From Lachnospiraceae bacterium (GTDB lineage: Bacteria > Bacillota > Clostridia > Lachnospirales > Lachnospiraceae), in NCBI GenBank assembly GCA_051888795.1, contig JBJFCD010000199.1, positions 12,509 to 76,508 on the forward strand: a DNA stretch of 64,000 nt. Direction: 5' to 3'. The position numbers and the translations under genes were made by a program. Positions 13,162 through 38,737 of the stretch are shown here, in pieces; the stretch's first letter is position 1, and the number at the start of each line of letters is the position of its first letter. The notes under the pieces are model-generated. The model made no database searches. It was not told the DNA's origin and was given only the letters and a program-made list of their open reading frames with translations.

Positions 13162-13251
13162 AGGGAGTGATTGGAAGTTTGCACTGTAATGTGTTTTGAT
13201 ATGGATGATTTATAATTTTATATGAACATAAAAAAATATTGGAGAAAAGTG

Positions 13252-14034: not shown

Positions 14035-14098
14035 AATAGTTATTACAGAGGATAACATTAGGAAAACCAATAAAAGAAAAATGTAACGGAGAAAATGA

Positions 14099-14815: not shown

Positions 14816-14827
14816 TGGAGTAAGAAC

Positions 14828-15559: not shown

Positions 15560-15585
15560 AGAAAAATATATGGAGAATTTTAGAA

Positions 15586-16890: not shown

Positions 16891-16961
16891 TAATTTGAAT
16901 ATTTATGTGATTCAATGTTAACTGAAGAGGAGATGTAAAAGGTGCAGGAGGGTTGTTTGGA

Positions 16962-18284: not shown

Positions 18285-18308
18285 TATATGCGAGGGAGAA
18301 TAAGGAAG

Positions 18309-19688: not shown

Positions 19689-19717
19689 ATAATGATTTAA
19701 ACACCGGAGGAAATGAT

Positions 19718-21127: not shown

Positions 21128-21186
21128 AGCCAGATTAGTGGGGAACACGTTTGGAATTTTATATAAATAAAAATCAGATAATTATG

Positions 21187-21217
21187 TCGGGGTGGATTTT
21201 GTCCACCTCGATTTTTT
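21187..21217 (+). terminator. Type-A hairpin, probable intrinsic terminator
   Basis: TCGGGGTGGA-TTTTG-TCCACCTCGA followed by a T-run. Confidence 0.7.
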
Positions 21218-21224
21218 GTCTTTC

Positions 21225-21294
21225 GTGCAAATTGTGACAAAAATGAGGTTGATTTTGCAGGAGTGATCAGTAATGAAATATTTTGTGATAAACT
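21225..21294 (+). promoter_or_regulatory. Promoter P1: putative LytTR direct repeat plus extended -10
   Basis: CAAATTGTG-12-TTGATTTTG, 31 bp gap, then TGA-TAAACT. Confidence 0.65.
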
Positions 21295-21335
21295 CAGAAT
21301 AAAGAAAACGGTAAATCTCAAAGGAGGAAAAAGGA

Positions 21336-23975
21336 ATGAAGTTTGATTTTGAAAAATCAAGATTTTCTATTAAGAAAGCAATAGTCGGATTATTAGCTTT
21401 CGTTCTGATTGCAGGGCAATCAGGGATTACATCAATGGCAGATTGGGTTGATGTTGATGGAGATGAAAGTTATAGTGAAGGAGATATTTCCGGAAATGCA
21501 TATGTTGACTGGGAGAAACGTGAAAAAAAAGCTATGCCAGGCGATAGTTGTACATTCGAAGTATCTCAAGAGGATATTGTGCTGGAAAAATATGTAAAAG
21601 ATGAAGAAGGATGGGCAGACTGGGAAAAATTTTCCGATGAAGACTGGGAAAATGTAGAACTGCAGTATCAATGGTATAAGATTAATTGGGATGAGGAGAC
21701 TGAAGAGGAGATTTATGAAAAAATATCTGGCGCGACAGAAGCATCTTACACCATTTATGATATTAAAGCAGAAGATTTTCAAGGTGAGTTTGAATGTGAA
21801 ATTTCGGTTAAATATGGTACAGATGAATCTCAAACAGCAATTGTTGATCGTTCACACTTTTGGCTGGTGCCAGATATCGGTTTTGAAGGTGTAGATGAAG
21901 ATAATGAATGCTATAAGAAAATATATACCCAGAATAAATCCGGGGTGCTTAATGTTGATGCAAAATGCACTAATGAAAAAGCAACACTTGAATATAAGTG
22001 GTATGTAGACGGTGAGGAGATTTCAGGAGCTACTTCTAATAGCTGTGAATTTAAAATAGAAGATGGTTCGTATTCGAAATCTTATGAATGTGTCGTTAAG
22101 GCAACCGTGGATGGTGTATCGAGAAGGTGTTATTATTGGTTTGACATTTACCGATATGATAATATGGGGAAATTTGCTGAAAATTCAATTATGAATGTTT
22201 CACTTCCGGGAGGGGCGCGTTATGGATATACTTTTACCCCTAGTCAGACTGATGAGTATTTTTTCTATTCGATTTCTGAAAAATCAGATACAGGAGTATA
22301 TCCTGATCCATATGCAAATTTAATTGATTCTGATGGAAATCCTGTAAAAATTCTTAAAGGTGATACGGATGATGCGAACGCTCTGGATTTCAAATTTAAA
22401 GTGGCATTAGAGGCAAATAAGACATATACATTACTTCTGAAGGCATTTAATAGTGTCGATGTAACATTTGCCGTTAAGAATGATACAGGTGAGTCTGATT
22501 TCTCTGTGACGAGTAGTTATAAAACAATTTATACGCAAGATAAAACAGGAACACTTTCTGCTAATATAAAATGTACTAACGAGAACGCAAATTTTGAGTA
22601 TCAATGGTATGAATATGTATACCATGAAGATACAGGGATTGAAGGGTTAGAAAAAATAGAAGGCGCAACATCAAAAGCTTATGAGTATAGTTTTAGTGAT
22701 GGAGAATACAATAAATATGTAAAATGTGATGTGAAAGTTACTGTAAATGGTATCTCAGAATCAACTACGGGAGAATTTAATGTATACAGATATGAAAATA
22801 AGGGCACATTTTCTGAAGATTCCAGTATGGAAATAACAGCTCCGCAGGGAACAAGTGATGGTCGCCCGGTATGCTATGGATATACCTTTACGCCTAGTCA
22901 GACAGCGGAATATACATTCTCCTCAACATCTAATAATATATCCTTAGAAGCAGCAGTACTGAATTCCAAAGGAAATAATGTTATTGGAAATGATTTCGAT
23001 TATGAATCATGGAATGATACTTGGGATGATGAAGACTGGGATGATGAAGACTGGGATGACGAAGACTGGGATGATGAAGACTGGGAAGAAGGAGATTGGG
23101 ATGATGATTTTCAGTTAAAATCAGTGCTGGTAGCAAATAAGACATATACTTTTGTTGTTTGTATTTGGAATGGTAATACTGAGAATACATTTACGGTTAC
23201 AAATACAATGGGAGACACAGTAGAGTGCCCGCATGCTGATACTTCTTTAATCGATGCAAAAGAAGCCACCTATTTTGAAGAAGGTTACACAGGAGATATC
23301 TATTGTAATGATTGTGAAACTATCATTGAAAAAGGTCAGGTAATTGCGAAAAAAGAATGTGCACATACAAACACATCTGTAGTTGATAAAAAGACGGCTA
23401 CTTGTCTGAAAGAAGGTTATACAGGAGATACTTATTGTAATGATTGTGAGACTGTGATTAAGAAAGGCGAAAAAATTGCCAAGATTCCTGCAACGATTTC
23501 TCTGAACGTAAAGGGAACAATTCCGTTGAAGGTAAAACAGTCTACAACAGCAGTGAGGGTTTCCTATGGACCTGGAGATGGTATTGCGTCATGGAAGTCC
23601 AGCAATACGAAGATTGCAACCGTTTCCTCAAAAGGAAAAATCACCGGTAAGAAAGCCGGAACAGCGAAGATTACGGTTGTGCTGAAGAGCGGAAAGAGTA
23701 AATCCTTTAATGTTAAGGTACAGAAAAAAGAAGTTGCTACGACAAAGGTTACGGTTAATTCAAAGAATGTAGTATTGAAAAAGGGTGGAAAATTCACAGT
23801 AAAAACTACGCTGGCACCGATTACTTCTGTTCAGAAAGTGAAGTATACATCCAGCAATAAGAAAGTGGCAACAGTATCTTCCAAGGGTGTAATTACTGCT
23901 AAGAAAAAAGGAACAGCAAAGATCACTGTAACATCCGGTAAGAAGAAAGTGACAATCAAAGTGACAGTGAAATAA
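21336..23975 (+). CDS. Secreted/surface protein A: two 202-aa repeats, acidic WDDED tract, two Cys/His repeats, C-terminal Big_2 Ig-like domains
   Basis: Signal peptide; repeats K.IYTQ.K.G...KCTNE offset 606 bp; C.H...EGYTGD.YCNDC x2; WKSSNTKIATVSSKGKITGKKAGTAKITV. Confidence 0.8.
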   Translation: MKFDFEKSRFSIKKAIVGLLAFVLIAGQSGITSMADWVDVDGDESYSEGDISGNAYVDWEKREKKAMPGDSCTFEVSQEDIVLEKYVKDEEGWADWEKFSDEDWENVELQYQWYKINWDEETEEEIYEKISGATEASYTIYDIKAEDFQGEFECEISVKYGTDESQTAIVDRSHFWLVPDIGFEGVDEDNECYKKIYTQNKSGVLNVDAKCTNEKATLEYKWYVDGEEISGATSNSCEFKIEDGSYSKSYECVVKATVDGVSRRCYYWFDIYRYDNMGKFAENSIMNVSLPGGARYGYTFTPSQTDEYFFYSISEKSDTGVYPDPYANLIDSDGNPVKILKGDTDDANALDFKFKVALEANKTYTLLLKAFNSVDVTFAVKNDTGESDFSVTSSYKTIYTQDKTGTLSANIKCTNENANFEYQWYEYVYHEDTGIEGLEKIEGATSKAYEYSFSDGEYNKYVKCDVKVTVNGISESTTGEFNVYRYENKGTFSEDSSMEITAPQGTSDGRPVCYGYTFTPSQTAEYTFSSTSNNISLEAAVLNSKGNNVIGNDFDYESWNDTWDDEDWDDEDWDDEDWDDEDWEEGDWDDDFQLKSVLVANKTYTFVVCIWNGNTENTFTVTNTMGDTVECPHADTSLIDAKEATYFEEGYTGDIYCNDCETIIEKGQVIAKKECAHTNTSVVDKKTATCLKEGYTGDTYCNDCETVIKKGEKIAKIPATISLNVKGTIPLKVKQSTTAVRVSYGPGDGIASWKSSNTKIATVSSKGKITGKKAGTAKITVVLKSGKSKSFNVKVQKKEVATTKVTVNSKNVVLKKGGKFTVKTTLAPITSVQKVKYTSSNKKVATVSSKGVITAKKKGTAKITVTSGKKKVTIKVTVK
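23022..23108 (+). repeat. In-frame 15-bp tandem repeat TGGGATGAYGAAGAC (WDDED) x4 plus degenerate copies
   Basis: Seen directly. Confidence 0.95.
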
Positions 23976-23994
23976 GAATAATCTGAAGGGTGTG

Positions 23995-24019
23995 TCGAGG
24001 TGGATTTTGTCCACCTCGA
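23995..24019 (+). terminator. Type-A hairpin (perfect 10-bp stem) without downstream promoter module
   Basis: TCGAGGTGGA-TTTTG-TCCACCTCGA. Confidence 0.65.
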
Positions 24020-24054
24020 TCTTGATTTTATTATTTTGTGAAGAGGTGACAATA

Positions 24055-27000
24055 ATGCGGAAACAAAACAAATTGTGTGCATTGCTATTAATAGTAGCGT
24101 TGATGGTTTCGTCGTTAACAACCTATGCATCTGAAACTACAGAAAGTTACATCAACGAAAATGAGGGAGAAAAAGTTGATGAAATTGAAGAACCTGTTTT
24201 TACTGAGTCAGATGACGAAAATGTAATTTTGTCAGATGTAGAAGAGGTTCATTTGTCGGATAAGAAAATAGTAGAGTTTGGTTCTTATCCAAAATCAAAG
24301 GTGAATGATGCAGAAGTAATTAACGTTTTAAATTCTAAGACAGTAGATAGTGATGGGAATATCGAATATAATGGTGATATATATTTAAAGATAGAAGATG
24401 GGGTATATTATGTATGGGAACCAATACAATGGTATGTAATAGACACACGTGGAGAAGAATCTACTTTATTATCAAAGAATCTAATTGATGGACGGTCAAT
24501 GGGAACAGGATTTTATGCTTCTTCATGGGAAGAATGTCCTATGCGTACTTGGCTCAATGAGGATTTTTATAGTATTGCCTTTTCAGATGAAGAAAAGAAA
24601 GGGATTCGAGCTGTTGACTTAGAAAATGACAGAGGAAATTCAACTACAGATAAAATATGGTTTTTGCAATATACAGATTATTCGAATAATATGTACGGAT
24701 TTTATGGAAACAGTGATAGAGTATGTGAATCTACGGATTACGCTAAATATAAAGGCAATTTTTATTATTTTACTCGCAGTACTTTTACTTTTGTAGTGAG
24801 TTTTTGGAGAGGTTATATAAGTGGAACAGGAGCATTGGTATCTCAATTGACAGGACAAGAATCATATGGGGTTAGACCAGCGGTATGTGTAGATAACTCT
24901 GTATTGGATGGAAGTACAAAAGAAAAGGAACCAGAAAATGGAAATATCCTTTGTTTTACATCTCTTGTAAATAAGATAACTCGCAATGCAGATGGTGATA
25001 TAACGGTTCCTGTTGAAGTGTCTTTAACGGACGGTACAGAAGCTCCGGATAATTTGCAAATCATTGCGTATGTTAATCACGACAAAAAAAGTGAAAAACG
25101 TCTTAAAGTAAAAAATGGAGTGATACAGATTCCACTATATGCAGGAGAATGGAGTGAAGGGGATAATGAGCTCTCCTTCCAATGTACGGTTGAAGGGTAT
25201 TCTGTAGAAGATAAAGATTCAACTGTGAATATACATACAAAAGAGTTATCGTATAAAGAAACTTTGGATATGGATTTATCATTTAAATTTGATGGAAAAC
25301 TTGCCAGTATCCTGGGGCTTGGTATAGGAGCCACAACTGGAACAGTCATGGAAATTGATAATGATGATGGCGATATTACATTATCTATGCAAAATACAGC
25401 GGAAGTAAATGGTAAGGCAACAACAGGCATTACTGTACAATCAGATGAATTAAAAGCTTTTAAGAGTGGAGTATCATCTACAAAGAATTTGTCTGGAACA
25501 AATACGACAACAATGACTATTGAAAATTTTGATCCGGATTTGAGCAAAGATGAGCAGATGGGGGCTATCGGATGTTTTATGTTAAAAGGAATATCTGACA
25601 AAATTGGTGATGTAACGTCTTCTGAATTAGACAAGCTTTACTATGATATGTATGGAACAAGAATTACAAGTTTGGAAACAGAAAAGGAAAGCCTCAAATT
25701 TACACTGGACGTAAACGAAAACTCAACTGCAAGCGGAAAGTTAGGGGATAGTTCATATAGTCTTACAACAGCGGGAGCGAAAATTACATTTTCTAACAGT
25801 ATTAATAAAGATTTGTCATCAGGGAATGTTACATATGGTACATCAGCTGGACAGAAAGATGGAGGAATTTTAATAAAAGGAGATTGGCTTTTTGGAGTAG
25901 GGTCGGTTATTTACGAAAGCAGTAAAAATGCATCTTCCCATGAAATACAGGTTCAGACAAATGGTGGTGAAGTACAGGGAGTTTCAGTAAAAGGGGAAAC
26001 AAATACATCTGATAAAATATCCGCAACTTCAGTCAAAACAACGAATAGTTCAAAAGTATCTTTTAAAGATGATGCAGCAAAATCAATCGTTAATGATAGC
26101 GATGATCTTAAAAACCTTATTAATTTGAAAAAAAGACTTTTTTCGCAAACAGACATAAAGAATGCGTATAATTCTTTATGGGAATCTGATTATATTGGAG
26201 AATACAAAAAAAACAAATCATATGAATCTGGTATTGAGTTATATGTAGATGGAGATGTCCCTAATACGAAAGGACAAGGTATTGAGTTATCATATTCAGG
26301 AACAAAAAAATACGATTTTGAAGTAGGACAAGGAGTACTTTACAAAGGTAATTATTATGATGTAATTGACAATAGTGATAATTTTCCTGATGGAAAGACA
26401 TGGAATCTCGGATATTCTGCACCGGCGATGTTAGCATTAGGAGTAGATGGATTGAGTGATTTTTTAAATGATGTTATTTTATATGAAATAGGAAAAGTAT
26501 CAGATGGTGTTAAAAGTAATGCTGCTTCAGTTTGGGGAAATATAAAAAATGGATGGAATGCAACAATTGCATCGGTACAGTCACCACTATTGTCAACTAA
26601 ATCATCAAAATCAATGAATGTACTTTCTGTAGATGAAGATTCTTTGGAAGAAAAAAATTCGGGAATGAATACAGTAACAATAGGAGATGCATATAGTGTA
26701 AGGATATATACCGATGAATCTCAAACTATTGAATTGACGACTGAAGAACTTTTGTCAAATGAGCCCATTTATTTATCATTGGAATATACAGAAGAAGATA
26801 TTCAGAATCTTGGACTGACAGAGGAAGAAATGGATAAAATAGCCATTTTTTATTGGGATGTTGAAAAGAAATTGTATAGGCGTTTAAACGATTCTGAAAT
26901 TGACATAGATACTAAAAAGGTTACTGCCCGCGTAATTGGAAATGGAGAATATATATTGGCAGTTGATACAGATGAACCTATTGTTACATCTTTTGAAGTT

Positions 27001-28092
27001 TCTGATGAAACAGAAAATCCGATTATGTTGGCAAATGTTAGTGATTTCTCAGGAATTAGTGGATGTACATTATTTATTGATGATATTGAAATGATTAATA
27101 ATGAAAATTATAAGGAATATTATGACGAATCTCTTGGATTGATTGAATATAAAGTAAATGAACCTTTAGAAGAAGGGAAACATACGGCTTCTATTTCGTT
27201 TATAGATTCAACTGGAAATGGCATGAGCAAGCCTGTAACAATTGAATGGACTGTAGATGTGGAGAAACCGGAAATTTCAGAAATAGAGATTCCCAATAGT
27301 ATAGGTGATGAAGAAAAATTTACAATTTCTGTTAATGTTAATGATGATAATTTAAAACATGTGTATGTAAGAATTATGGATGATGCTGATTCTGCTATTT
27401 ATGAAATGGAAAAAGGTGATGACGGATGGTATGTAATAATTAATAGTGGCAATCTAAATAAAAAAGTAGAAGTTGTAATTATTGCTGTAGATGAAGCTGG
27501 AAATAAAACGGAAAGTAAACCAAAAGAAATAATAATTAATAAGAAAGATGATAAAACTTCTAATAGTGTAAAATTAACGAAAATTAAGCTTTCTGGTCTT
27601 TCGAAACAAATTGCAGCAGGCAAAAAAATTAAACTGACGGCAAGTGTTCTTCCGTCTAACGCAACAAATAAAGCTATAACATGGAAATCCAGTAATACGA
27701 AGGTTGCTACAGTTACTCAGTCAGGTGTTGTTACGATGAAGAAAGGATCCGGCGGCAAATCGGTTACGATCACAGCAACGGCAAAAGATGGAAGTGGTGT
27801 AAAAGCAACTTACAAGATTAAATCCATGAAAGGAGTTGTAAAAAAGGTTTCCATTTCCGGAAGCAAGTCTGTAAAAGCAGGAAAATCATTGAAATTAAAG
27901 GCGAAAGTGACAGCTACAAAGAGTGCGAATAAGAAACTGAAGTGGACAAGTAGCAATACAAAGTATGCTAAGGTAAGCAATTCCGGAAAAGTGACAACAT
28001 ATAAGGCGGGAAAAGGAAAGAAAGTTAAGATTACTGCAATGGCGACGGATGGAAGCGGAAAGAAAAAGACTGTGACGATTAAGATTAAATAA
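24055..28092 (+). CDS. Secreted/surface protein B: DUF6273-like domain, unknown central region, Ig-like domains, two C-terminal Big_2
   Basis: Signal peptide; EFGSYP..EPIQWYVI..WEECPMRTWLN..GVRPA; Big_2 tail; ATG 24055 after GAGGTG. Confidence 0.75.
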   Translation: MRKQNKLCALLLIVALMVSSLTTYASETTESYINENEGEKVDEIEEPVFTESDDENVILSDVEEVHLSDKKIVEFGSYPKSKVNDAEVINVLNSKTVDSDGNIEYNGDIYLKIEDGVYYVWEPIQWYVIDTRGEESTLLSKNLIDGRSMGTGFYASSWEECPMRTWLNEDFYSIAFSDEEKKGIRAVDLENDRGNSTTDKIWFLQYTDYSNNMYGFYGNSDRVCESTDYAKYKGNFYYFTRSTFTFVVSFWRGYISGTGALVSQLTGQESYGVRPAVCVDNSVLDGSTKEKEPENGNILCFTSLVNKITRNADGDITVPVEVSLTDGTEAPDNLQIIAYVNHDKKSEKRLKVKNGVIQIPLYAGEWSEGDNELSFQCTVEGYSVEDKDSTVNIHTKELSYKETLDMDLSFKFDGKLASILGLGIGATTGTVMEIDNDDGDITLSMQNTAEVNGKATTGITVQSDELKAFKSGVSSTKNLSGTNTTTMTIENFDPDLSKDEQMGAIGCFMLKGISDKIGDVTSSELDKLYYDMYGTRITSLETEKESLKFTLDVNENSTASGKLGDSSYSLTTAGAKITFSNSINKDLSSGNVTYGTSAGQKDGGILIKGDWLFGVGSVIYESSKNASSHEIQVQTNGGEVQGVSVKGETNTSDKISATSVKTTNSSKVSFKDDAAKSIVNDSDDLKNLINLKKRLFSQTDIKNAYNSLWESDYIGEYKKNKSYESGIELYVDGDVPNTKGQGIELSYSGTKKYDFEVGQGVLYKGNYYDVIDNSDNFPDGKTWNLGYSAPAMLALGVDGLSDFLNDVILYEIGKVSDGVKSNAASVWGNIKNGWNATIASVQSPLLSTKSSKSMNVLSVDEDSLEEKNSGMNTVTIGDAYSVRIYTDESQTIELTTEELLSNEPIYLSLEYTEEDIQNLGLTEEEMDKIAIFYWDVEKKLYRRLNDSEIDIDTKKVTARVIGNGEYILAVDTDEPIVTSFEVSDETENPIMLANVSDFSGISGCTLFIDDIEMINNENYKEYYDESLGLIEYKVNEPLEEGKHTASISFIDSTGNGMSKPVTIEWTVDVEKPEISEIEIPNSIGDEEKFTISVNVNDDNLKHVYVRIMDDADSAIYEMEKGDDGWYVIINSGNLNKKVEVVIIAVDEAGNKTESKPKEIIINKKDDKTSNSVKLTKIKLSGLSKQIAAGKKIKLTASVLPSNATNKAITWKSSNTKVATVTQSGVVTMKKGSGGKSVTITATAKDGSGVKATYKIKSMKGVVKKVSISGSKSVKAGKSLKLKAKVTATKSANKKLKWTSSNTKYAKVSNSGKVTTYKAGKGKKVKITAMATDGSGKKKTVTIKIK
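27677..28087 (+). repeat. 411-bp direct repeat identical by eye to 37344-37754 (Big_2 anchor); similarity continues through the terminator and promoter to about 28220
   Basis: Visual comparison; offset 9667. Confidence 0.9.
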
Positions 28093-28111
28093 TTTCAAAA
28101 AAAAGAGGTGA

Positions 28112-28143
28112 AAAGGGTGTGCGTCGAAAGATGCATACCCTTT
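28112..28143 (+). terminator. Type-B hairpin, probable terminator
   Basis: AAAGGGTGTGCGTC-GAAA-GATGCATACCCTTT. Confidence 0.7.
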
Positions 28144-28153
28144 CTAATCTCCT

Positions 28154-28223
28154 GTGCAAATTGTGGCAAAAATGAGGATAATTATGCTGTAAAAAAAATC
28201 AAAAGTAAATCATGTGGTACAAT
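28154..28223 (+). promoter_or_regulatory. Promoter P2: putative LytTR direct repeat plus extended -10
   Basis: CAAATTGTG-12-ATAATTATG, 31 bp gap, TGG-TACAAT. Confidence 0.65.
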
Positions 28224-28254
28224 GATTACAAAACTATTAAATGGGGTGGCAATT

Positions 28255-28771
28255 ATGTGTGGGAGAATTTATTCTAAAAGAAGAATGTTTTTAACTTTAA
28301 TCATTATGGCATGATTAAATCCTATGATATTTACATAAATAAGAAAGTGTTTCTATCTATAATACCCAGCACGAGAGAGGACGATACATTTTCACCGAGA
28401 GCCGCAATTTATAGATATAAGGGAAAAAAGCGTGTTCTTTGGGAGGCATTACCTTTAATTTGATTTACAAATATAGTAAAGGTAAATCAGTACAAAATGC
28501 GACAAAGATATTCTATAGTAGCTGGTCAGGACAATATGGTTTGCCTGCTAATCGTTCGATGACAGTTTATAATTCACCAAATTCTGGTAAAAAGGTTAAA
28601 ACAGTGGTAAAAGGGCAGATGATTACAATTGATAAATTATATATTAATTCAAAGTGTACAGTCATTTATTTGCATGTGAAATTGCAAAGTGGGAAGACAG
28701 GCTGGGAAAAAGGATTGAAAGATACTTTTACTGAAAATAAAATGTTTCAAGAAGTTGAGTATGCCAGATAA
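28255..28771 (+). pseudogene. Fragmented gene for a secreted protein with an SH3-like C-terminus
   Basis: RBS GGGGTGG and ATG 28255 give a truncated signal peptide (stop 28314); second fragment 28311-28463 and third 28439-28771 are in different frames. Confidence 0.55.
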
Positions 28772-28804
28772 ATACTAATATGAAAAAAACAAGGAGGATA
28801 CAAA

Positions 28805-29488
28805 ATGAAGTTAAAAAGGATGTTGCCATTTTTTATTCTGATTGGGAGTCTGCTTCTGATAAGCTGTTCAAGTGATTCTGCTTTAAAAGAAAACTCATCA
28901 GAAGAGCAACAAAACATTGAACAAACTGAAGAATCTAATGAGAATGAAGTTGAGACTGATACGGAAGAAGAGGCTGAGAATACAGAAGATAATAACAATG
29001 TTGAGAATCAGGGAAATGATACCGAAAAGAATCAGGAATCTTCTATGTCTGAATTTGACAAAAAGATAGAAGAAATACGTCAGAATTATGATGAAATAAA
29101 AAATAATCTTTCAAAAATGCAAAAATTTGATGCGGGAGAAGTTGTGCAATATTTGCAAAACGATAAGATTAGAAAGATAGTTGCACCTCCGGGGACATAT
29201 GATCAGATGGATGGTTATGGTGATCTTGAAGATTATACAGCAGAGTATTATTATACGAAAGATGAAAGACCTGTGTTTGTATTTGTATATAATAAAAAAG
29301 AACAATATCGATTTTATATACAGGTAAGCGAAGAAACTATGTCAAAATGTATTCGGTATATTGATGAAAACGGTGTTGTTCATGATTATCCGGAAGGTAA
29401 GGCTGTAGATGAGATTGAGGAAATTTCAAAAGTAGGCGGATTCTTTATGCTGGCGTATCAGGAATTACACTGGGCAGGACGATTATAG
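28805..29488 (+). CDS. Lipoprotein with acidic linker and uncharacterised C-terminal domain
   Basis: Lipobox LISC; E/N-rich spacer; domain shared with 37921-38694. Confidence 0.8.
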   Translation: MKLKRMLPFFILIGSLLLISCSSDSALKENSSEEQQNIEQTEESNENEVETDTEEEAENTEDNNNVENQGNDTEKNQESSMSEFDKKIEEIRQNYDEIKNNLSKMQKFDAGEVVQYLQNDKIRKIVAPPGTYDQMDGYGDLEDYTAEYYYTKDERPVFVFVYNKKEQYRFYIQVSEETMSKCIRYIDENGVVHDYPEGKAVDEIEEISKVGGFFMLAYQELHWAGRL

Positions 29489-29549
29489 TAGAGGTTCTTG
29501 ATCAAAAAGAAGAGGGAGCACAAAAAGGCTAAAATAGGTTGATTTTTTC

Positions 29550-29577
29550 GAGGTGGATTTTGTCCACCTCATTTTTT
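29550..29577 (+). terminator. Type-A hairpin, probable terminator
   Basis: GAGGTGGA-TTTTG-TCCACCTC followed by ATTTTTT. Confidence 0.7.
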
Positions 29578-29584
29578 CTCTCCT

Positions 29585-29654
29585 GTGCAAATTGTGACAA
29601 AAATCATGTCGATTTTGAAACAGGCAGCAGTATGAGAGGGATATATGGTAAAAT
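29585..29654 (+). promoter_or_regulatory. Promoter P3: putative LytTR direct repeat plus extended -10
   Basis: CAAATTGTG-12-TCGATTTTG, 31 bp gap, TGG-TAAAAT. Confidence 0.65.
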
Positions 29655-29698
29655 TGAGATAAATTTATAGAACGGGAAAAGTCGATGGGAGGAGAAAA

Positions 29699-32600
29699 GT
29701 GATGAAAAAGAAAAGATATATTGCCATAGTATTGACAATGGTTATGCTCGTTCTTTCTACAAGTGAAAGTATGATTACTTTTGCAGAGACGAATGAAACA
29801 ACAGGAGAAATTGAAAGTGTAGATGAGTCAGATTCCGTCACTGCAAAAGAGTACGAAAAAATGCTTGAACAAAAAAAGGAAGAAGAGGAGAAAAAAGAAG
29901 AACAAAAAGTTGCAGATGTATTACAGGAAAGCTCTGCAGATGGTATCAAAACGATAGCAGAAATAAGCGACTATTTTATATACAGAGGGGAAGGCTTTGT
30001 TGAAGATAGTGAAATTACCGAGAAAAGCAAAAAATTCGGTAATATAGAAAAATATTATGATTCTGTTGAAAAGGTTATTGAATATCTGTCTAAAAAGTTT
30101 ATTAGTCAGAAAACTTCAATAGAATTTGGATATCAGTCAAAGGAAATTGATTATAAAAAAGAATTAGAATCAATCATTGGTGCTTCGTGTGAAGAAATTC
30201 AAGAAGACAGATATCCGCAGGAAATTAGTTGTTACTTACAAGGAGAGTACGATAAACAATCAGGAGCTTATAAATACCATGTGATTTTAGAAACGCAGTA
30301 TCAATTGGAGAGTGTAGCGGAGGAAAATGCTTTAGATCAGAAATCTCAGGATGATAGTGTGACTGAAGAATCAAATCAGATGAAATCACTAATGACCTTG
30401 TCAGAAGAAGAACCGATTAATGAATCATCGGAAAAAGATACATCGGATGAAACTGATACAACTGAAGAGCCAGAGGAAGTTACCTGGAAGTTTGATTCAG
30501 AAAGTAGTACATTGACAATTTCCGGTTCTGGAACAATGGAAAATTATGAGAATGCTTCAAGTGTACCATGGTATGATGATCGCGAGAACGTGAAGAATGT
30601 TGTAATTGCAGATACTGTAACGGGAATAGGTGATTATTCATTTAGTGGTTGCAGTAACTTAGTAAGCGCTGATATTCCTGATTCCGTGATTAGTTTGGGG
30701 AAAAATGCATTTTATGGCTGCACATCTTTAGCAAGTGTACAGCTTCCGGATAGTATAGAGTCAATAGGATTTCAGGCGTTTGCATCATGTACATCTTTAG
30801 GGGAGATTAATATCCCATTAAACTGGAAAGAGTGCCCTTCTACAGATGGAAGTACAAGTGATATAGAACATCGCGGACGAATCTTTATAGGATGTGAATC
30901 TTTGGTGGAAATTACAGTTCCGGAAGGAATGACAGTAATACCATCGTATGGATTTAACGGAAGTGACTATCTGGAAACAATAAATTTGCCGAATACACTG
31001 ACCGAGATAAAAAATCATGCATTTTTTGGTTGTAAAAAAATAAAAATAATGGAAATACCGGAAAGTGTGGCAGGGGTAATCGGGAAATCGGCATTTTGCC
31101 AATGTACATCAATAGAGCAGATGGAACTTTCGGAGGGGATTACTGAACTGCAGTCATTTGCATTTGACGGATGCGTAGCTTTAAAAAAGGTGGTCTTGCC
31201 TGATAGTATAGAAAAAATAGGATATAAAGCGTTTATTGGATGTAAGTCCTTAACAGATATCAATATTCCACTTAGCTGGAATGAATGTCCATCTTGGGAC
31301 GGAAGTACCATAGATACAGATCATTGTGGACTGATCTTCCAAGGATGCGAAGCACTTGTAGAAATTACTATTCCGGAAGGAATGACAGCAATACCGTCAT
31401 TTGGATTTAACGGAAGTGACTATTTGGAAACAGTAAATTTACCGGATACACTGACCGAGATAAAAAATCATACGTTTTTTAACTGCAAAAAATTAAAAAA
31501 CATAGAAATTCCAGAAAGTGTAGAAGGAGTTATTGGAAAATCAGCATTTTGTTATTGTAGTTCATTAGAGGGAATCGTGCTCCCATCAGGAATTGCGGAA
31601 CTACAGCTGTATGCATTTAATGAATGTACAGCATTGGAAAAAGTAATCTTACCGGACAGTATAAAGAAAATAGGATATCGGACTTTTTATGGGTGTAAAG
31701 TTTTATCAGATATCAATATTCCACTTAACTGGAATGAATGTCCATCTTGGGAGGAAAGTACCATAGATACAGATCATTGTGGACAGATTTTTAAAGGGTG
31801 TACTGCTTTGACAGAGATTACCATTCCGGAAGGAATGACAGCAATACCGTCATTTGGATTTAACGGGAGTGACTATTTGGAAACAGTAAATTTACCGGAT
31901 ACACTGACCGAAATAAAAAATCATACATTTTTTGGTTGTAAAAAACTAAAAAATGTGGAGATACCCAAAAATGTAACAGGAGTAATCGGAAAATCGGCTT
32001 TTAACCAATGTGCGTCAATAGAACAGATAGAATTGCCGGAAGGGATTACAGGGCTTCAAGGGTATGCGTTTTACTATTGTACGTCACTGAATAATATTAT
32101 ATTGTCTGAAGAACTGAAATCAGTCGGTGATTATGCATTTTATTATTGTACAGGACTCAAGACAATTGACTTGAAAAATATAGAGCAATTAGGGGAATAC
32201 ACTTTTTCAAAATCAGGATTAACCTCCATAACAATTGAGAATATTACAAATTTGGGGTTTCGTTCATTTGAAAATTGTAAGTCATTAGATGAAATATTTT
32301 TCAATGCTACGTCTTATCAGCTTACATATAATACTGGTGGTTATAGTACATTTACCGGTTGTGGTTCCGGCGTTGGGAAAATGAAGGTGACGATAGGTCC
32401 TGAAGCTACTTATATAAGTGCTTTGTTTACAGGTTGTAGCAATCTTACGGATATTGTAATGCCGGATAATGTGACTAAAATAGGAGTATATGCTTTTTAT
32501 AATTGTAAAAATCTGAAAGATGTAACTATGCCTAAACAGCTTACAGCGATTGGTACAAAGGCATTTTATAATTGTAGTGCGCTGGATAAGATTGAGATAA

Positions 32601-35600
32601 ATTCGGATATAACAGTTTCCTCAGACGCGTTCACTGGAGCACAGATGAATGAGCTGGCATTGGGAGAAAATGTTATGTCTCTGGAAAGTGCATTTTACCA
32701 GAAAATTCCAATTGGAAATTTTGAAGTGAATGAAGGGAATACTTCTTATACCAGTGACAAAGGGGTGCTGTATGATAAAGGTAAGCAGATTCTATTATGT
32801 TTCCCAAATAAATCCGATATAACAAAATGCAGTATTCCGGAAAGTGTCACACAAATTACAGATTATGCTTTTTATAATAATTCAGTATTAGAAGAAGTAG
32901 AATTTTTGGAAGACGCTGAAACGGATGTAGTAACGATGGAAGTTTCAGAGGGACTAAATATTGGTAAATATGCTTTTTCAGGGTGTAATTCAATCGCACA
33001 AGTGACAATGCCTGCATCACTGAATAGTATGGGAGATTATGCACTGGCAGATTGTTCTTCACTGGAAGCAGTTCACTTTAAAGGAAATGCACCTCAAATG
33101 TCAAGCAATGTTTTCCAAAATGATTATACAGCATTAGGATACCGCGACGGAACAGATGGATGGACAGAGGAAACATTCAAGAGTGATATGGCAAAGAAGG
33201 GTATAGTTATTATCAATGAGGACGAAAAATATGACAGAGTCTGTGTTCTTTTGCTTGATCATTCATGGAGTATGGATGGGGATCCGTTGAAAAACATGAA
33301 AGAAGCTGCTACAGCATTTTGCAATAATATTTTAAATAAAATGAAATATAAAACAGCTCTTTGTATAGTACCGTTTTGCGGAACCAGTAAAGCATTTGGG
33401 TTTTCTTCAGATAAGAATGATATAAAGAGTTATATCAATAATATTGAGTGTGACAACAGCACAAATATATATGATGCTGCATTATCTGCAAACAGATTCC
33501 TTAAGATGGTAAATGCAGATGAAAAAAATATCATGCTTATGACCGATGGTATCCCTATTACCGGTTCAGTGTCCAATGATGGTCCATATACAAGTAGCGA
33601 TATAGCTACATATTATAAATATGCGAATGCAGTTTATAATTTGGTGAAAAGTTTTAGTGCAGGCTATAGGATTTTTACAGTAGGATTTTTCTCAGAATTA
33701 AGTGAGAGCGAACAAAAATTTGCAAAAAAATTTTTGGAAGATTTGAGCACGCATGGATATTATGATGCAACAGAAATAGAAGATATTACAACAAAATTCG
33801 AGGAAATTGCTGCCGGAATTAATGGCGATACGTATCTGAATATGAAAGAAGATGAGTGCGCCTTCTATTTTTATGATGCAGAGACCGGCGAAAGCTTATC
33901 TAACGTAAGCTTTATGTATGGGCTCGAAAGATATGAGTCGGATAAAGAAGGATTTGCTAAGATATCAGTGTCTCTTTTTGAGAGAACAGCAAAGACATTA
34001 AGTTTTACAAAAACAGGATATAATACAGAGAAAGAATCAATTGTTTTAAAACAGGGAGAAGTCTATCCGATCGGGTTGACAAAAGAAGCTGAGGTTCCTA
34101 CTGTTTATCGGTGTGACCTGCAATATGAAGGAGACACTTCCTATATTGATATTGTGAAAAATGAAGTATCTTTGTACTATGATGATAAGGATGTTTTTTC
34201 GCTTACTGTGACTGCAGGGTATAAAGGTGGAGAAATAAAAAGTTATGCGATTAAGCAAGCTGGAAAAATATTGAAAAGCAATAATACGGGATGCTTTGAA
34301 AAATTGACGGCGTCTGATTTTAAATCTGGGGATAATAATATTGTAATAGAGGTAGAAGGTGAAAAAGGAGATAAATATTCCTATAGTACAAAATTGTCTG
34401 TATACGGTGAAAGTGAAGAAGTACAGGAAAAAATAGATTTAGGAAAAGGACTATCCTGTACAGTCCCGATAAATTTCCCAATTGTAGGGGGCGTAAAAAT
34501 TGATTTGGATTATTTAGTAGATCTGCCTATACAGTTTAGTGTAGAAGGAAAGAAAGTAAAAATAGTTGTTAATGTCGGAACTGTTTCAACAAATGAAAAA
34601 AACAATTCTAAAGGTATATTCGACAAGGATTCGTGGAATATGCTTAAAACATTAGCCGAGAATAAAAAGGATATCTCCAGATTCAGCTCTTGGTTAAATA
34701 CAAACAGTTATGGATGGAATGCCAGATACATGAAACAGATGCAGGCAAAAGTAGGACCAGGATCGCTGAAAATGGATGTATACGGATATCTGGAAGGAGA
34801 ACTGTCTGACTCGGGACAACTAAAGGATATTGAAAACATAAAAGGTGCGATTGTTATCAAATGTACGGCAAAAGCTGAGACGGAGAATCAGATCTTACTT
34901 TCACCTCCAATTATTATAAAAGTAGGAATTAAAGGTGGTGTAGAGGGAGACTGGGGAGTTAGTATGTCAAAAATATCTACTCTTGGTGATCTTAAATTAA
35001 CAGGAAAAGTTACTCTTTCTGTTTCGGTATCTGCAGGTGTGGGAATTGGATATGCCAAAATAATGAGTTTGACAGGGAATGGAGAGGGAACCCTTAGCTA
35101 TTCACGACAGTTTGATCAAGGCTATAATAAAGCTGAGCTAAAAGGGAAATTGTATCTTACAGCAAATATTCTGGGATTTACAACGGATGTGTCGCCTCAA
35201 TTCCTCCAAGGGGGACCATGGACGATATATGAGGAATATGATAATGAAGTAAAGCAAAGTAAAAATGTTGAGACAAAGGGAAACAACGTAAATCCACTTA
35301 ATATTATAATGGATGAAAATGAATATGAAGTTGCAGAACGGACGTATTTGGAGACGCAATCAGAATGGAATAAAGGAGTAGCAGTTAATAAGGAAATGGC
35401 ATCATTATCTGTAGATGATAAAGAAAGTGGTATGACCATACTTCAGTCATCTGTTTATGATGATCCTCAGATGAGACTGGTGCAGACAGATGATGTTACG
35501 ATGATGGTATTTTTGTCAGATGATGCAGATCGGGATGCTGTGGACCGTACAAAACTGGTATATTCCATATATGATGAAGAATCTGACACATGGTCCACTC

Positions 35601-37759
35601 CTGAAGCAGTGTGGGATGATGGTACTGGAGATTATATGCCGGAAATTGAAACAGATGGGTCAAATATTTGGATTGCCTGGATGAATGCAAATCGAAAGTT
35701 TGGGGATGATGCGGAATTTACAAACCTTCTTCCTGCAATGGAAATTGCCATTGCAAGATTTGATGGAAATGGCTTTACAGAATGTAAAAATATTACAAAC
35801 AACACTTCCTATGACTGCATGCCATCGCTTGTTATAAAAAATGGAGCAGGTTATATCAGTTGGATACAGAACACATCAAATAATGCGTTATGTAATGATA
35901 GTACTAATAACGTGTTCGCATATTCGCTCGAAGACGAAAATACAACAGAATTGGCAAGTGGAATTTCTAATATCAAAGACTTTGAGGCGGGAATTCTTTC
36001 AGAGAGCAATGTTGTGACTTATATAACCGATGGTGATGGAAATTACACGACAACTGATGATACGAGTATGTATGTAATGAATTTTTCCGGCAAGAAACTG
36101 TTTTCTTACGAAGGGAAGAATAATCTGTCACAACCTTATTACTATAATGGAAATTTGATTTGGAGCGAAGCAAACGGACTAAAATGCCTGAAAAATGTGT
36201 CCGCAACGGAAGAAAATTTCCTTGGATTTTCCGGATATGTAAACAGTGAATATCAAATATTGGAAAATGAAAATTATATTTATATTTTGTTATTAAATAA
36301 TGCTGATCAGGAAAATTCAAATGATACGGTAAATGTAGAGTCATTTGTTTACACATACGATAAAACCGCAGAAGTATGGAATAAAGCAACTCAGCTGACA
36401 GATTTGAATACAGGAGTACAGAGCACAAACGGATTCTTTACATCGGATGGAAAAATTGGTCAGATAATTACCGCAAATGAATATGTTTCCGATAATACGG
36501 CAAATGTCATGAGTATTTATTCCACGGTATCCGAATTATATTCTGATTATGAATTGGCAGATTTGTATTATGACGATGCAATAATTACAGATGAAGGCTA
36601 TGAATTAGATGTAGATGCAACAATTCAAAATATTGGTCAATTGAAAGGCGGAAGCTATAAGGTTGAATTAGTTCAGGGCGAAAACGTACTTGCAAGCCAG
36701 ACCTTTGATGATGGCATTATGGCAGGAGAAAGTGTGGAACAGACAATAAGATTCAGTTTCTCTGATGCTATATCACATAATAGTGAATATAAGGTGGTAG
36801 TTTCAGTAGAAGATGATCCAGATCAAAGTAATAATACACAGCTTATTTCATTAGGAAAGATGGATGTGGCAGTTAACTATTCATTACTTGAATATGGCGA
36901 AAAACAGGATAAATACAGATTAGCTGTATCGGTTACTAACCAGGGTATTATTACTACGGATGCGATTCTGAAATTATATTGTATGAGTACAGAAAATGAG
37001 GCATTTCAGACAATAGATATTCCGTCTCTTCGGGCAGGGCAGACAAGGATGTATATTGTTGATCTGGATATAGACGAGGCCGACTATGTAAATAATAAAT
37101 ATAGAGTTTACATGGTTGCAGAGACATCGTTGGATGATTCCAATATATTAAATAATACAGATTATGTGCTTATGATGAAGAATGTCGAGAAAGAACCGGA
37201 AGAGAATATAGAAGTTCCGGAAAAAGATACTCCGGTAAAAGTATCTAAGATCACGCTTTCCGGTATATCAAAGCAAATCGCAGCAGGAAGGAAAATAAAA
37301 CTGACGGCGAGTGTTCTTCCGTCTAACGCAACGAATAAAGCCGTAACATGGAAATCCAGTAATACGAAGGTTGCTACAGTTACTCAGTCAGGTGTTGTTA
37401 CGATGAAGAAAGGATCCGGCGGCAAATCGGTTACGATCACAGCAACGGCAAAAGATGGAAGTGGTGTAAAAGCAACTTACAAGATTAAATCCATGAAAGG
37501 AGTTGTAAAAAAGGTTTCCATTTCCGGAAGCAAGTCTGTAAAAGCAGGAAAATCATTGAAATTAAAGGCGAAAGTGACAGCTACAAAGAGTGCGAATAAG
37601 AAACTGAAGTGGACAAGTAGCAATACAAAGTATGCTAAGGTAAGCAATTCCGGAAAAGTGACAACATATAAGGCGGGAAAAGGAAAGAAAGTTAAGATTA
37701 CTGCAATGGCGACGGATGGAAGCGGAAAGAAAAAGACTGTGACGATTAAGATTACATAA
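29699..37759 (+). CDS. Giant surface protein C (2686 aa): BspA-type LRR_5 repeats, VWA domain, propeller/CARDB-like regions, two C-terminal Big_2
   Basis: Signal peptide; IP..V..IG..AF..C..L repeats; MIDAS DHSWS..T..MTDG; TIQNIG..AGESVE CARDB-like; Big_2 tail identical to protein B. Confidence 0.85.
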   Translation: MMKKKRYIAIVLTMVMLVLSTSESMITFAETNETTGEIESVDESDSVTAKEYEKMLEQKKEEEEKKEEQKVADVLQESSADGIKTIAEISDYFIYRGEGFVEDSEITEKSKKFGNIEKYYDSVEKVIEYLSKKFISQKTSIEFGYQSKEIDYKKELESIIGASCEEIQEDRYPQEISCYLQGEYDKQSGAYKYHVILETQYQLESVAEENALDQKSQDDSVTEESNQMKSLMTLSEEEPINESSEKDTSDETDTTEEPEEVTWKFDSESSTLTISGSGTMENYENASSVPWYDDRENVKNVVIADTVTGIGDYSFSGCSNLVSADIPDSVISLGKNAFYGCTSLASVQLPDSIESIGFQAFASCTSLGEINIPLNWKECPSTDGSTSDIEHRGRIFIGCESLVEITVPEGMTVIPSYGFNGSDYLETINLPNTLTEIKNHAFFGCKKIKIMEIPESVAGVIGKSAFCQCTSIEQMELSEGITELQSFAFDGCVALKKVVLPDSIEKIGYKAFIGCKSLTDINIPLSWNECPSWDGSTIDTDHCGLIFQGCEALVEITIPEGMTAIPSFGFNGSDYLETVNLPDTLTEIKNHTFFNCKKLKNIEIPESVEGVIGKSAFCYCSSLEGIVLPSGIAELQLYAFNECTALEKVILPDSIKKIGYRTFYGCKVLSDINIPLNWNECPSWEESTIDTDHCGQIFKGCTALTEITIPEGMTAIPSFGFNGSDYLETVNLPDTLTEIKNHTFFGCKKLKNVEIPKNVTGVIGKSAFNQCASIEQIELPEGITGLQGYAFYYCTSLNNIILSEELKSVGDYAFYYCTGLKTIDLKNIEQLGEYTFSKSGLTSITIENITNLGFRSFENCKSLDEIFFNATSYQLTYNTGGYSTFTGCGSGVGKMKVTIGPEATYISALFTGCSNLTDIVMPDNVTKIGVYAFYNCKNLKDVTMPKQLTAIGTKAFYNCSALDKIEINSDITVSSDAFTGAQMNELALGENVMSLESAFYQKIPIGNFEVNEGNTSYTSDKGVLYDKGKQILLCFPNKSDITKCSIPESVTQITDYAFYNNSVLEEVEFLEDAETDVVTMEVSEGLNIGKYAFSGCNSIAQVTMPASLNSMGDYALADCSSLEAVHFKGNAPQMSSNVFQNDYTALGYRDGTDGWTEETFKSDMAKKGIVIINEDEKYDRVCVLLLDHSWSMDGDPLKNMKEAATAFCNNILNKMKYKTALCIVPFCGTSKAFGFSSDKNDIKSYINNIECDNSTNIYDAALSANRFLKMVNADEKNIMLMTDGIPITGSVSNDGPYTSSDIATYYKYANAVYNLVKSFSAGYRIFTVGFFSELSESEQKFAKKFLEDLSTHGYYDATEIEDITTKFEEIAAGINGDTYLNMKEDECAFYFYDAETGESLSNVSFMYGLERYESDKEGFAKISVSLFERTAKTLSFTKTGYNTEKESIVLKQGEVYPIGLTKEAEVPTVYRCDLQYEGDTSYIDIVKNEVSLYYDDKDVFSLTVTAGYKGGEIKSYAIKQAGKILKSNNTGCFEKLTASDFKSGDNNIVIEVEGEKGDKYSYSTKLSVYGESEEVQEKIDLGKGLSCTVPINFPIVGGVKIDLDYLVDLPIQFSVEGKKVKIVVNVGTVSTNEKNNSKGIFDKDSWNMLKTLAENKKDISRFSSWLNTNSYGWNARYMKQMQAKVGPGSLKMDVYGYLEGELSDSGQLKDIENIKGAIVIKCTAKAETENQILLSPPIIIKVGIKGGVEGDWGVSMSKISTLGDLKLTGKVTLSVSVSAGVGIGYAKIMSLTGNGEGTLSYSRQFDQGYNKAELKGKLYLTANILGFTTDVSPQFLQGGPWTIYEEYDNEVKQSKNVETKGNNVNPLNIIMDENEYEVAERTYLETQSEWNKGVAVNKEMASLSVDDKESGMTILQSSVYDDPQMRLVQTDDVTMMVFLSDDADRDAVDRTKLVYSIYDEESDTWSTPEAVWDDGTGDYMPEIETDGSNIWIAWMNANRKFGDDAEFTNLLPAMEIAIARFDGNGFTECKNITNNTSYDCMPSLVIKNGAGYISWIQNTSNNALCNDSTNNVFAYSLEDENTTELASGISNIKDFEAGILSESNVVTYITDGDGNYTTTDDTSMYVMNFSGKKLFSYEGKNNLSQPYYYNGNLIWSEANGLKCLKNVSATEENFLGFSGYVNSEYQILENENYIYILLLNNADQENSNDTVNVESFVYTYDKTAEVWNKATQLTDLNTGVQSTNGFFTSDGKIGQIITANEYVSDNTANVMSIYSTVSELYSDYELADLYYDDAIITDEGYELDVDATIQNIGQLKGGSYKVELVQGENVLASQTFDDGIMAGESVEQTIRFSFSDAISHNSEYKVVVSVEDDPDQSNNTQLISLGKMDVAVNYSLLEYGEKQDKYRLAVSVTNQGIITTDAILKLYCMSTENEAFQTIDIPSLRAGQTRMYIVDLDIDEADYVNNKYRVYMVAETSLDDSNILNNTDYVLMMKNVEKEPEENIEVPEKDTPVKVSKITLSGISKQIAAGRKIKLTASVLPSNATNKAVTWKSSNTKVATVTQSGVVTMKKGSGGKSVTITATAKDGSGVKATYKIKSMKGVVKKVSISGSKSVKAGKSLKLKAKVTATKSANKKLKWTSSNTKYAKVSNSGKVTTYKAGKGKKVKITAMATDGSGKKKTVTIKIT
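30809..32130 (+). repeat. Three in-frame 453-bp (151-aa) LRR super-repeats
   Basis: NIPLxWxECP anchor at 30809, 31262 and 31715. Confidence 0.85.
37344..37754 (+). repeat. Second copy of the 411-bp Big_2 anchor repeat
   Basis: Matches 27677-28087. Confidence 0.9.
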
Positions 37760-37782
37760 TTTCAAAAAGAAAAGAGTTGTAT

Positions 37783-37814
37783 AGGGTGTGTGTCGAATGA
37801 TGCATACCCTTTTC
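37783..37814 (+). terminator. Type-B hairpin, probable terminator
   Basis: AGGGTGTGTGTC-GAAT-GATGCATACCCT followed by TTT; G-U compatible variants relative to the 28112 copy. Confidence 0.7.
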
Positions 37815-37823
37815 TGGTCTCCT

Positions 37824-37892
37824 GTGCAAATTGTGACAAAAATGAGGTTAATTACGCAGTTAAAAAATCAAAAAGGAATTATATGATATAAT
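37824..37892 (+). promoter_or_regulatory. Promoter P4: putative LytTR direct repeat plus extended -10
   Basis: CAAATTGTG-12-TTAATTACG, 30 bp gap, TGA-TATAAT. Confidence 0.65.
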
Positions 37893-38694: not shown

Positions 38695-38737
38695 CAGGTA
38701 ATTGACAAAAAGAAAAGTGAGAAAGGAGAATAGAGTT

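Follow-up and report, generated by a model that had tools for sequence, protein, structure and literature searches.

In a 64,000-nucleotide window of a Lachnospiraceae genome (contig JBJFCD010000199.1, positions 12,509 to 76,508; part of a 3.9-Mb, 39% G+C draft genome of 295 contigs), a set of promoters shares two imperfect 9-bp direct repeats, 12 bp apart, at a nearly constant distance from an extended -10 box. It is very likely that these promoters are of the LytTR type, whichever regulator acts on them, and probable that they are activated by the LytTR response regulator encoded next to them. The first-pass annotation of the window had reported four such promoters (P1–P4), each with a first 9-mer (R1), a spacer and a second 9-mer (R2), and had suggested a putative LytTR regulon. 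The suggestion is supported by the geometry, by the orthologous loci and by a matrix built from orthologues only. All four sites are present:

P1, 21228..21294, + strand: R1 CAAATTGTG (21228-21236), spacer ACAAAAATGAGG (21237-21248), R2 TTGATTTTG (21249-21257), gap 31 bp, extended -10 TGaTAAACT (21286-21294)
P2, 28157..28223, + strand: R1 CAAATTGTG (28157-28165), spacer GCAAAAATGAGG, R2 ATAATTATG (28178-28186), gap 31 bp, extended -10 TGgTACAAT (28215-28223)
P3, 29588..29654, + strand: R1 CAAATTGTG (29588-29596), spacer ACAAAAATCATG, R2 TCGATTTTG (29609-29617), gap 31 bp, extended -10 TGgTAAAAT (29646-29654)
P4, 37827..37892, + strand: R1 CAAATTGTG (37827-37835), spacer ACAAAAATGAGG, R2 TTAATTACG (37848-37856), gap 30 bp, extended -10 TGaTATAAT (37884-37892)

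R1 is CAAATTGTG throughout and R2 takes the form nnrATTwyG. The distance from the end of R2 to the extended -10 (TGnTAnnnT), measured at 31, 31, 31 and 30 bp, is fixed as had been claimed, and TGn precedes the -10 at every site. The absence of a consensus -35 is likewise confirmed: a sigma-70 scan demanding a -35 of at least 4/6 recovers none of P1–P4. The 17-nt core CAAATTGTGNCAAAAAT, allowing up to two mismatches, has four copies in the window, against 0.11 expected.

How constant is this arrangement? We compared 12 sites from this genome and from orthologous loci. The spacer is 12 bp at all 12. The distance from the end of R2 to the -10 is 30–32 bp at 11 of them (30 at P4, 32 at site b of locus L153), site a of L153 being ambiguous. 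If a 17-bp spacer between -35 and -10 is assumed, about 8 bp separate the end of R2 from the -35 position downstream, again at 11 of 12 sites. Over the 12 sites R1 matches the sequence at offset +21 in 5.25 of 9 positions, compared with about 2.5 at most other offsets, and the core common to R1 and R2 is A-ATT-TG. Nearly invariant positions are C1, G9, C11, G20-21 and G30, and the block reaches to about -73.

The first-pass annotation had also proposed a genome-wide motif scan. We ran it, by mismatch and by matrix. All four promoters do share the repeat, but the set is larger than four, for three further sites have the same 9-12-9-31 geometry:

P0, 19618..19684, + strand: motif at 19618-19647, GAAATTATG-N12-ATGATTATG, gap 31 bp, extended -10 TGaTAAACG
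P5, on contig C167: CAAGTTTTG-N12-CTAATTATG, gap 31 bp, extended -10 TGgTAATAT
P6, on contig C66: CAAAAAGTG-N12-ATAATTGTA, gap 31 bp, extended -10 TGaTAAAAT

P0 scores 26.9 bits with a matrix built without it and 22.9 bits with the orthologue-only matrix. It lies within the last ~23 codons of the third sensor gene of the regulator operon and faces the Wzy_C-like gene at 19718-21127; judged by its position, it has the look of a promoter that coding sequence has taken in, or of one arising within such sequence. Two marginal matches were not counted among the seven sites. One, at C284:15497 (21.8–24.7 bits, -10 at 35 bp), lies upstream of an operon of a PP2C-like gene and a gene for a 608-residue secreted protein. 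In the other, at C243:3248 on the minus strand (21.3–27.5 bits), R2 is degenerate and the expected position has no -10; a membrane transporter gene follows 177 bp downstream. The putative regulon comprises at least seven promoters, P0–P4 in one 27-kb island that opens with the regulator operon, and P5 and P6 on other contigs.

The specificity of the motif is best judged with the matrix made from five foreign sites only. P1, P4, P2, P3, P5 and P0 are its top six matches in the 3.9-Mb genome, at 37.7 to 22.9 bits, while the reversed genome reaches 19.1 bits at most (both strands scanned). P6 scores 18.3 bits, but has the exact -10 geometry.

The foreign sites come from loci that carry orthologues of the regulator. 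In a metagenome protein catalogue these orthologues are 80, 74, 68, 68, 66, 58 and 56% identical to it. The motif lies directly 3' of the two-component operon in all five orthologous contigs that reach further than the sensor gene (L149, L150, L152, L153 and L155):

L152 (regulator 80%): CAAATTGTG-ACAAAAAAGAGA-TTGATTTTA, gap 31 bp, extended -10 TGaTAAACT
L155 (regulator 66%): CAAATTGTT-ACAAAAATAAGG-TTGATTTTG, gap 31 bp, extended -10 TGaTAGACT
L153, site b (regulator 68%): CAAATTATG-TCGAAATTGTGG-TTAATTTTG, gap 32 bp, extended -10 TGgTAATAT
L153, site a (regulator 68%): CCAATTTTG-TCGGAAAAGTGG-TTAATTTTG, gap to -10 ambiguous
L149/L150 (regulator 56%): CAAATAATG-TCAAAAAAAGCG-TTGATTATG, gap 31 bp, extended -10 TGgTACAAT

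P1 has orthologous promoters in L152 and L155. The flanks of the foreign sites are otherwise mostly unrelated, yet the motif and its distance to the -10 are kept. In L153 the sequence of the spacer has been replaced, with R1, R2 and the 21-bp register retained. Because this locus changes the spacer yet keeps the register of the repeats, we favour two repeats over a single long operator or the palindrome AATTGTG-A-CAAAAAT.

What is inherited together with the motif? The genes upstream of the regulator vary from locus to locus (AddA/PdaC, GGDEF, amidase, esterase or an IS110 element). The genes for regulator, kinase and sensor stay together as a unit with the repeat promoter and a large surface-protein gene. 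In a syntenic relative with the order DapF-AddB-AddA-GGDEF (L180:10001-10429; also L181 and L182) the regulator is cut to a 142-residue receiver, and the genes for the kinase, the sensor and all the surface proteins are gone; no motif of 10 bits or more lies within 10 kb on either side. The island appears to be gained and lost as a unit.

Beyond these loci the motif is scarce. In 60 related genomes it does not exceed the control rate at up to one mismatch, and the isolated matches have no R2; in at least one relative (L002) the GTGACA of such a match is spaced from a TATAAT box as a -35 would be. About 300 representative genomes of the family, sampled separately, gave no regulator homologue closer than 36% identity. 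The loose pattern TGCAANNNNTGRCAAAAATNNNNNNNATT, run over genome contigs, gave 117 matches, all single and scattered over unrelated taxa, and the -10 geometry was seen at none of them. A blind scan of JGI metagenome contigs with the pattern CAAATWNTGNCNNAA-N8-RATTNTG-N27-29-TGNTA gave 22 matches. Three of them (L160, L164 and L173) lie directly 3', on the same strand, of distant REC-LytTR and kinase operons (25–33% identity):

L164:4709, L173:4299 and L160:279: CAAATTwTG-N12-CCrATTwTG, extended -10 31 bp on, each beside a distant LytTR operon

The repeats at these three sites are cleaner than those of the present genome. LytTR genes occur in none of 49 control loci (366 kb, from an earlier loose scan), and by our own arithmetic the difference between blind and control loci gives p ~0.03 (Fisher's exact test). 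The identical placement at three operons adds weight to this result. These matches indicate that motifs of this class go with LytTR systems generally. In L173 we also observed a secreted-protein gene after the site, and a kinase that is seemingly split into a 306-residue GHKL protein and a 322-residue multi-transmembrane protein with the H-box RHDFNNQ.

If the neighbouring regulator is the activator, how would it act? The promoters would be activator-dependent sigma-A promoters with an extended -10 and no -35; RNA polymerase should therefore need help to start. The help would come from two tandem protomers of the phosphorylated REC-LytTR regulator (14099-14815), bound to the imperfect repeats R1 (CAAATTnTG) and R2 (TTrATTwTG). 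The centres of the repeats, 21 bp or two helical turns apart, would face the protein from the same side of the DNA. Assuming a start about 7 nt after the -10, the repeats would lie at about -69 and -48, and the centre of the pair at about -58/-59. The A-tract spacer would probably favour the bend that LytTR proteins impose. With R2 about 8 bp upstream of the vacant -35, the dimer would be placed to recruit or reposition RNA polymerase. The input would presumably be the adjacent short kinase together with the multi-transmembrane sensor paralogues that lack the histidine.

This geometry had been likened to that of AgrA- and ComE-type LytTR activators, and it does match the published promoters (PMC4005675, PMC5600425, PMC6193735, PMC4227749). 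The ComE promoters of Streptococcus pneumoniae (comAB, comCDE and comX) have two imperfect 9-bp repeats with a 12-bp linker, bound by the tandem LytTR domains of a REC-LytTR dimer (PMC4005675). The 9-12-9 imperfect direct repeat is the same here, but the repeat sequence differs. ComE is autoregulated and driven by a peptide, whereas here the regulator operon is not preceded by a site, and neither pheromone nor export genes came to light; and the targets are surface proteins, not competence genes. The AgrA repeats, [TA][AC][CA]GTTN[AG][TG], stand 12–13 bp apart upstream of the -35 (PMC5600425). The AgrA site is centred near -60 at suboptimal core promoters, and activation is linked to DNA bending (PMC4227749, PMC5600425). 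Like P2 and P3 of the Staphylococcus aureus agr locus, the present promoters have direct repeats, centred around -60, directly upstream of a suboptimal core promoter. The agr promoters, however, have a -35 with an over-long spacer, whereas here the -35 is absent and the -10 extended. Nor was AgrB or AgrD seen, and the kinase is divided between a catalytic stub and sensors without the histidine.

The LytTR systems of Streptococcus mutans have a 12-bp spacer and repeats 4–11 bp upstream of the -35; at hdrRM the distance is 8 nt and the -10 is extended (PMC6193735). The spacer is thus the same as here, and 8 nt to the -35 plus an extended -10 is the arithmetic of our 31-bp gap. HdrR and BrsR, on the other hand, are LytTR-only proteins, held by a membrane inhibitor, that autoactivate their own operon; the present regulator possesses a receiver domain and is paired with a kinase, and the scan for an autoregulatory site found none. 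VirR of Clostridium perfringens, a REC-LytTR protein from the class Clostridia, uses two imperfect direct repeats just upstream of the promoters of secreted-protein genes (pfoA and others). In the usual description a VirR box is a 12-bp repeat of the CCAGTT type; going by this, the sequence differs from that found here, as do the target genes. We regard the present set as a clean example of a well-known kind of switch. It is a textbook arrangement, not a new mechanism, and the understanding of how LytTR regulators work is unchanged by it.

Several observations weigh against activation by the neighbouring regulator at simple 9-12-9 sites. The direct repeat described by the first-pass annotation is real, as the +21 peak shows, but imperfect: R1 and R2 agree at only 5–6 of 9 positions. 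The A-tract that it took for a spacer does hold its length of 12 bp, but in this genome ACAAAAATGAGG is conserved as strongly as the repeats. An R1-like central element, AAAAATGAG, lies at +11, and the self-match has a second peak at +11/+12. Because the spacer is as invariant here as the repeats, and because of this R1-like element, the true recognition unit may be other than a simple 9-12-9. It is possible that the central element is functional, in which case binding would involve three sites at helical-turn spacing, which has not been described for LytTR proteins. CAAATTGTG and TTAATTATG each fit the AgrA consensus at about 6 of 9 positions, with A for the conserved G at position 4; functional LytTR repeats can diverge from the family consensus (PMC6193735). 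P2, P4 and P5, as well as P0 and P1, are partly paralogous copies, and the seven sites are therefore not seven independent observations. The genome encodes nine further LytTR proteins, the two closest paralogues being on contigs C142 and C70, and with ten in total proximity alone is weak evidence. Similar motifs stand beside distant LytTR systems; sequence alone therefore does not assign the cognate regulator. Finally, no repeat site was found upstream of the regulator operon, here (threshold 12 bits or more) or in the orthologous contigs L149, L152, L153, L154 and L155 (8 bits or more).

Given the paralogy, might the similarity be the by-product of a recent duplication of a unit consisting of a gene 3' end, a terminator and the intergenic stretch, without regulatory meaning? 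P2 and P4 do have a hairpin upstream in common, as well as much of what lies downstream, P1 and P3 have another hairpin in common, and P0 and P1 the -10 region. The stretch between R2 and -10, said to be divergent except in P2 and P4, is indeed alike in these two, but also in P0/P1 and in P2/P5. Among pairs of sites in this genome, however, the 30-bp motif is 60–90% identical, compared with 23–55% for the 40 bp upstream (in most pairs 23–38%, the background level) and 18–61% for the stretch from R2 to the -10. The upstream flanks of the unlinked P5 and P6 are unrelated, and the orthologous loci retain motif and -10 distance between diverged flanks. By chance, an extended -10 at the fixed offset is expected with a probability of about 0.002 per site (an estimate from base composition). 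The region is only partly duplicated, and duplication as the whole cause, a possibility that the annotation itself had raised, is highly improbable. The picture that fits is that of a module which would have spread by duplication, its block and its distance to the -10 then being kept by selection.

Two other explanations were considered. It seems unlikely that a different LytTR protein activates these promoters while the neighbouring regulator controls something else. There are candidates enough (of the nine, six are REC-LytTR regulators and the other three short LytTR-only proteins); the neighbouring regulator lacks an autoregulatory site; and distant systems of 25–33% identity adjoin CAAATTwTG-N12-CCrATTwTG, so that the motif is not unique to one orthologue group. 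On the other hand, the motif travels with orthologues of the 14099-14815 regulator in five of five loci, no related site lies within 5 kb of any of the nine other LytTR genes (only unrelated candidate repeats are found there), and neither the orthologue (best match 36%) nor the motif turned up in the genomes scanned for each, 60 in the case of the motif. There is a similarly small chance that the block is no LytTR site at all. It could be a non-LytTR operator (for example for a dimeric helix-turn-helix protein on AATTGTG-A-CAAAAAT near -64, in the style of a class I activator), or an UP-element-like A/T module that makes the promoters constitutively strong. The spacer in this genome is invariant, AATTGTGACAAAAAT is an imperfect palindrome (5/7) that agrees at 11 of 15 positions with the CodY box consensus AATTTTCWGAAAATT, and the A-tract and T-rich R2 lie where the C-terminal domain of the RNA polymerase alpha subunit contacts UP elements. 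But in L153 both palindrome and A-tract are replaced (by TCGAAATTGTGG and TCGGAAAAGTGG) and R1, R2 and the 21-bp register are kept. Nor are conserved G/C positions such as C1, G9, G20-21 and G30 a property of UP elements; instead of pure A/T at -40 to -60 with no need for G or C, the block has near-invariant G/C and extends to about -73. The LytTR system is the only regulator that co-occurs consistently (HTH_3 genes are present in only two of six loci), and three of the 22 blind motif matches abut LytTR operons.

Further candidates were examined by eye and rejected. There is no GG-N10-GC of a sigma-54 (-24/-12) promoter; GTGACA taken as a -35 has no -10 16–18 bp downstream; the right half-site of a CRP/FNR or Rex palindrome is not conserved; Spo0A boxes were found only inside terminator hairpins; and the CodY match of 11/15 has the wrong central bases, the element moreover being replaced in L153.

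What feeds the switch? The regulator operon contains, in order, a PdaC-like gene, the REC-LytTR regulator, a 243-residue kinase, three multi-transmembrane sensor paralogues without the histidine and the Wzy_C-like gene:

14099..14815, + strand: response regulator with receiver (REC) and LytTR domains, 238 residues, the proposed activator
14828..15559, + strand: short histidine kinase, 243 residues, one transmembrane segment, H-box RHDIANH, GHKL domain
15586..19688, + strand: three paralogous multi-transmembrane AgrC-like sensors of 434, 443 and 466 residues, without phospho-acceptor histidine
21186..21212, + strand: intrinsic terminator closing the regulator operon, 15 bp before P1
29550..29570, + strand: intrinsic terminator ahead of P3
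37783..37810, + strand: intrinsic terminator ahead of P4

A LytTR gene had been noted 7 kb upstream. The gene is there, but its linkage was understated: the operon ends at the terminator right before P1, and P0 lies inside it. Three of the four originally reported sites (P1, P3 and P4) start 10–20 bp past an intrinsic terminator picked up in the sigma-70 scan, and upstream of P2 there is a hairpin of similar kind with a weaker T-run. The regulator scores 66.8 bits for LytTR (PF04397; cut-off 22.6; domain at residues 140-238 or thereabouts) and 38.9 bits for Response_reg (PF00072; cut-off 30.2), and its receiver pocket is intact (D8, D9, D58, T87 and K107 are all present). The kinase scores 61.7 bits for HATPase_c_5, and every orthologous locus has it beside the regulator. 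In its C-terminal half the 434-residue sensor is 27% identical to the kinase (E 1e-17), with QSE in place of the RHD of the H-box. The C-terminal halves of the three sensors are nearly identical among themselves; the orthologous loci have one such sensor gene apiece. From these features the kinase appears to be split into a catalytic stub and sensors without the histidine, an unusual kinase/pseudo-kinase input.

The missing autoregulatory site, common to six loci, is atypical for quorum-sensing LytTR circuits. A weak look-alike at 13190-13220, 34 bp from TGcTATAAT, fell below the threshold and was not counted as such a site. Among open reading frames (ORFs) of at least 80 codons in 13291-21127 no member of the AgrB or ABC-exporter families was found, small ORFs not having been examined exhaustively. 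Because there is no autoregulatory site and no pheromone or processing genes were seen, we do not class the system, LytTR-type as its promoters are, as an Agr/Com-type quorum-sensing circuit.

Which genes lie under these promoters? P1 is predicted to drive 21336-23975 (879 residues, Big_2). The following gene, 23992-28092 (1366 residues, DUF6273/Big_2), is not preceded by a repeat promoter. Across its start lies a hairpin of the kind seen at P1 and P3 (23994-24020), but this has no proper T-run, and the gene is therefore probably co-transcribed from P1. P3 would drive 29699-37759 (2686 residues), with BspA-type leucine-rich repeat (LRR), VWA and Big_2 domains, and P4 would drive 37921-38694 (257 residues, Big_2) and 38702-40036 (444 residues, no Pfam family). 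Past P2 (28224-28800) there is no obvious intact first gene. This stretch contains a 19-codon ORF (28255-28314, MCGRIYSKRRMFLTLIIMA) with a good ribosome-binding site, a 50-codon ORF, and a 110-codon ORF with a TTG start, an SH3-like look and no Pfam match; the next gene, 28805-29488, encodes a 227-residue lipoprotein. The first region after P2 may hold a decayed gene or a small peptide. P5 precedes the gene of a 952-residue protein with C-type-lectin, LRR_5 and two C-terminal Big_2 domains, and P6 precedes a lipoprotein gene and a gene for an fn3/PPC secreted protein. The targets are functionally coherent, in that the unlinked P5 gene has LRR_5 and the C-terminal pair of Big_2 domains as in the island genes. 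By their predicted domains, nearly all the promoters would serve genes for secreted or surface proteins: giant BspA-LRR, VWA, C-type-lectin and DUF6273 proteins with paired Big_2 domains, lipoproteins and the Wzy_C-like membrane protein. The promoters thus probably switch on a set of giant adhesin-like surface proteins.

If this is true, the motif defines by sequence the regulon of a two-component system in a gut Firmicute that has received little study, and shows which giant BspA-LRR/Big_2 surface proteins are co-regulated and conditionally expressed. Such knowledge would help in the study of colonisation and adhesion, and in annotating islands of this kind in metagenomes. The interest lies in a clean multi-locus regulon, its giant adhesin-like cargo and its unusual kinase/pseudo-kinase input. 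As a practical search key, the 31-bp rule (repeats, 31 bp, extended -10) can be combined with the matrix; the blind scan has already found other LytTR operons. A more speculative view, which we hold only tentatively and think rather doubtful, is that the island is a self-contained, horizontally shuffled 'sense-and-coat' cassette. It would consist of one sensor-less but catalytic kinase, up to three interchangeable sensors without the histidine, one non-autoregulated LytTR regulator and at least seven promoters, one of them inside the 3' end of a sensor gene, and would swap giant adhesins and a Wzy-like glycan enzyme according to several signals from host or community.

Some details of the orthologous loci may be added. 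In L152 a motif-like relic (8175-8204, 25.7 bits) without a -10 occupies the place in the sensor gene that is equivalent to that of P0. In L149 (12857-13420) the repeat promoter points into a convergent HTH_3 (Xre-type) gene at 13002-13220, beyond which lie a gene of 213 codons and then an LRR/Big_2 gene of 2875 codons. Since this promoter faces the convergent gene, its activation would give RNA antisense to a repressor-like gene. The HTH_3 gene of L152 is divergent from the regulator.

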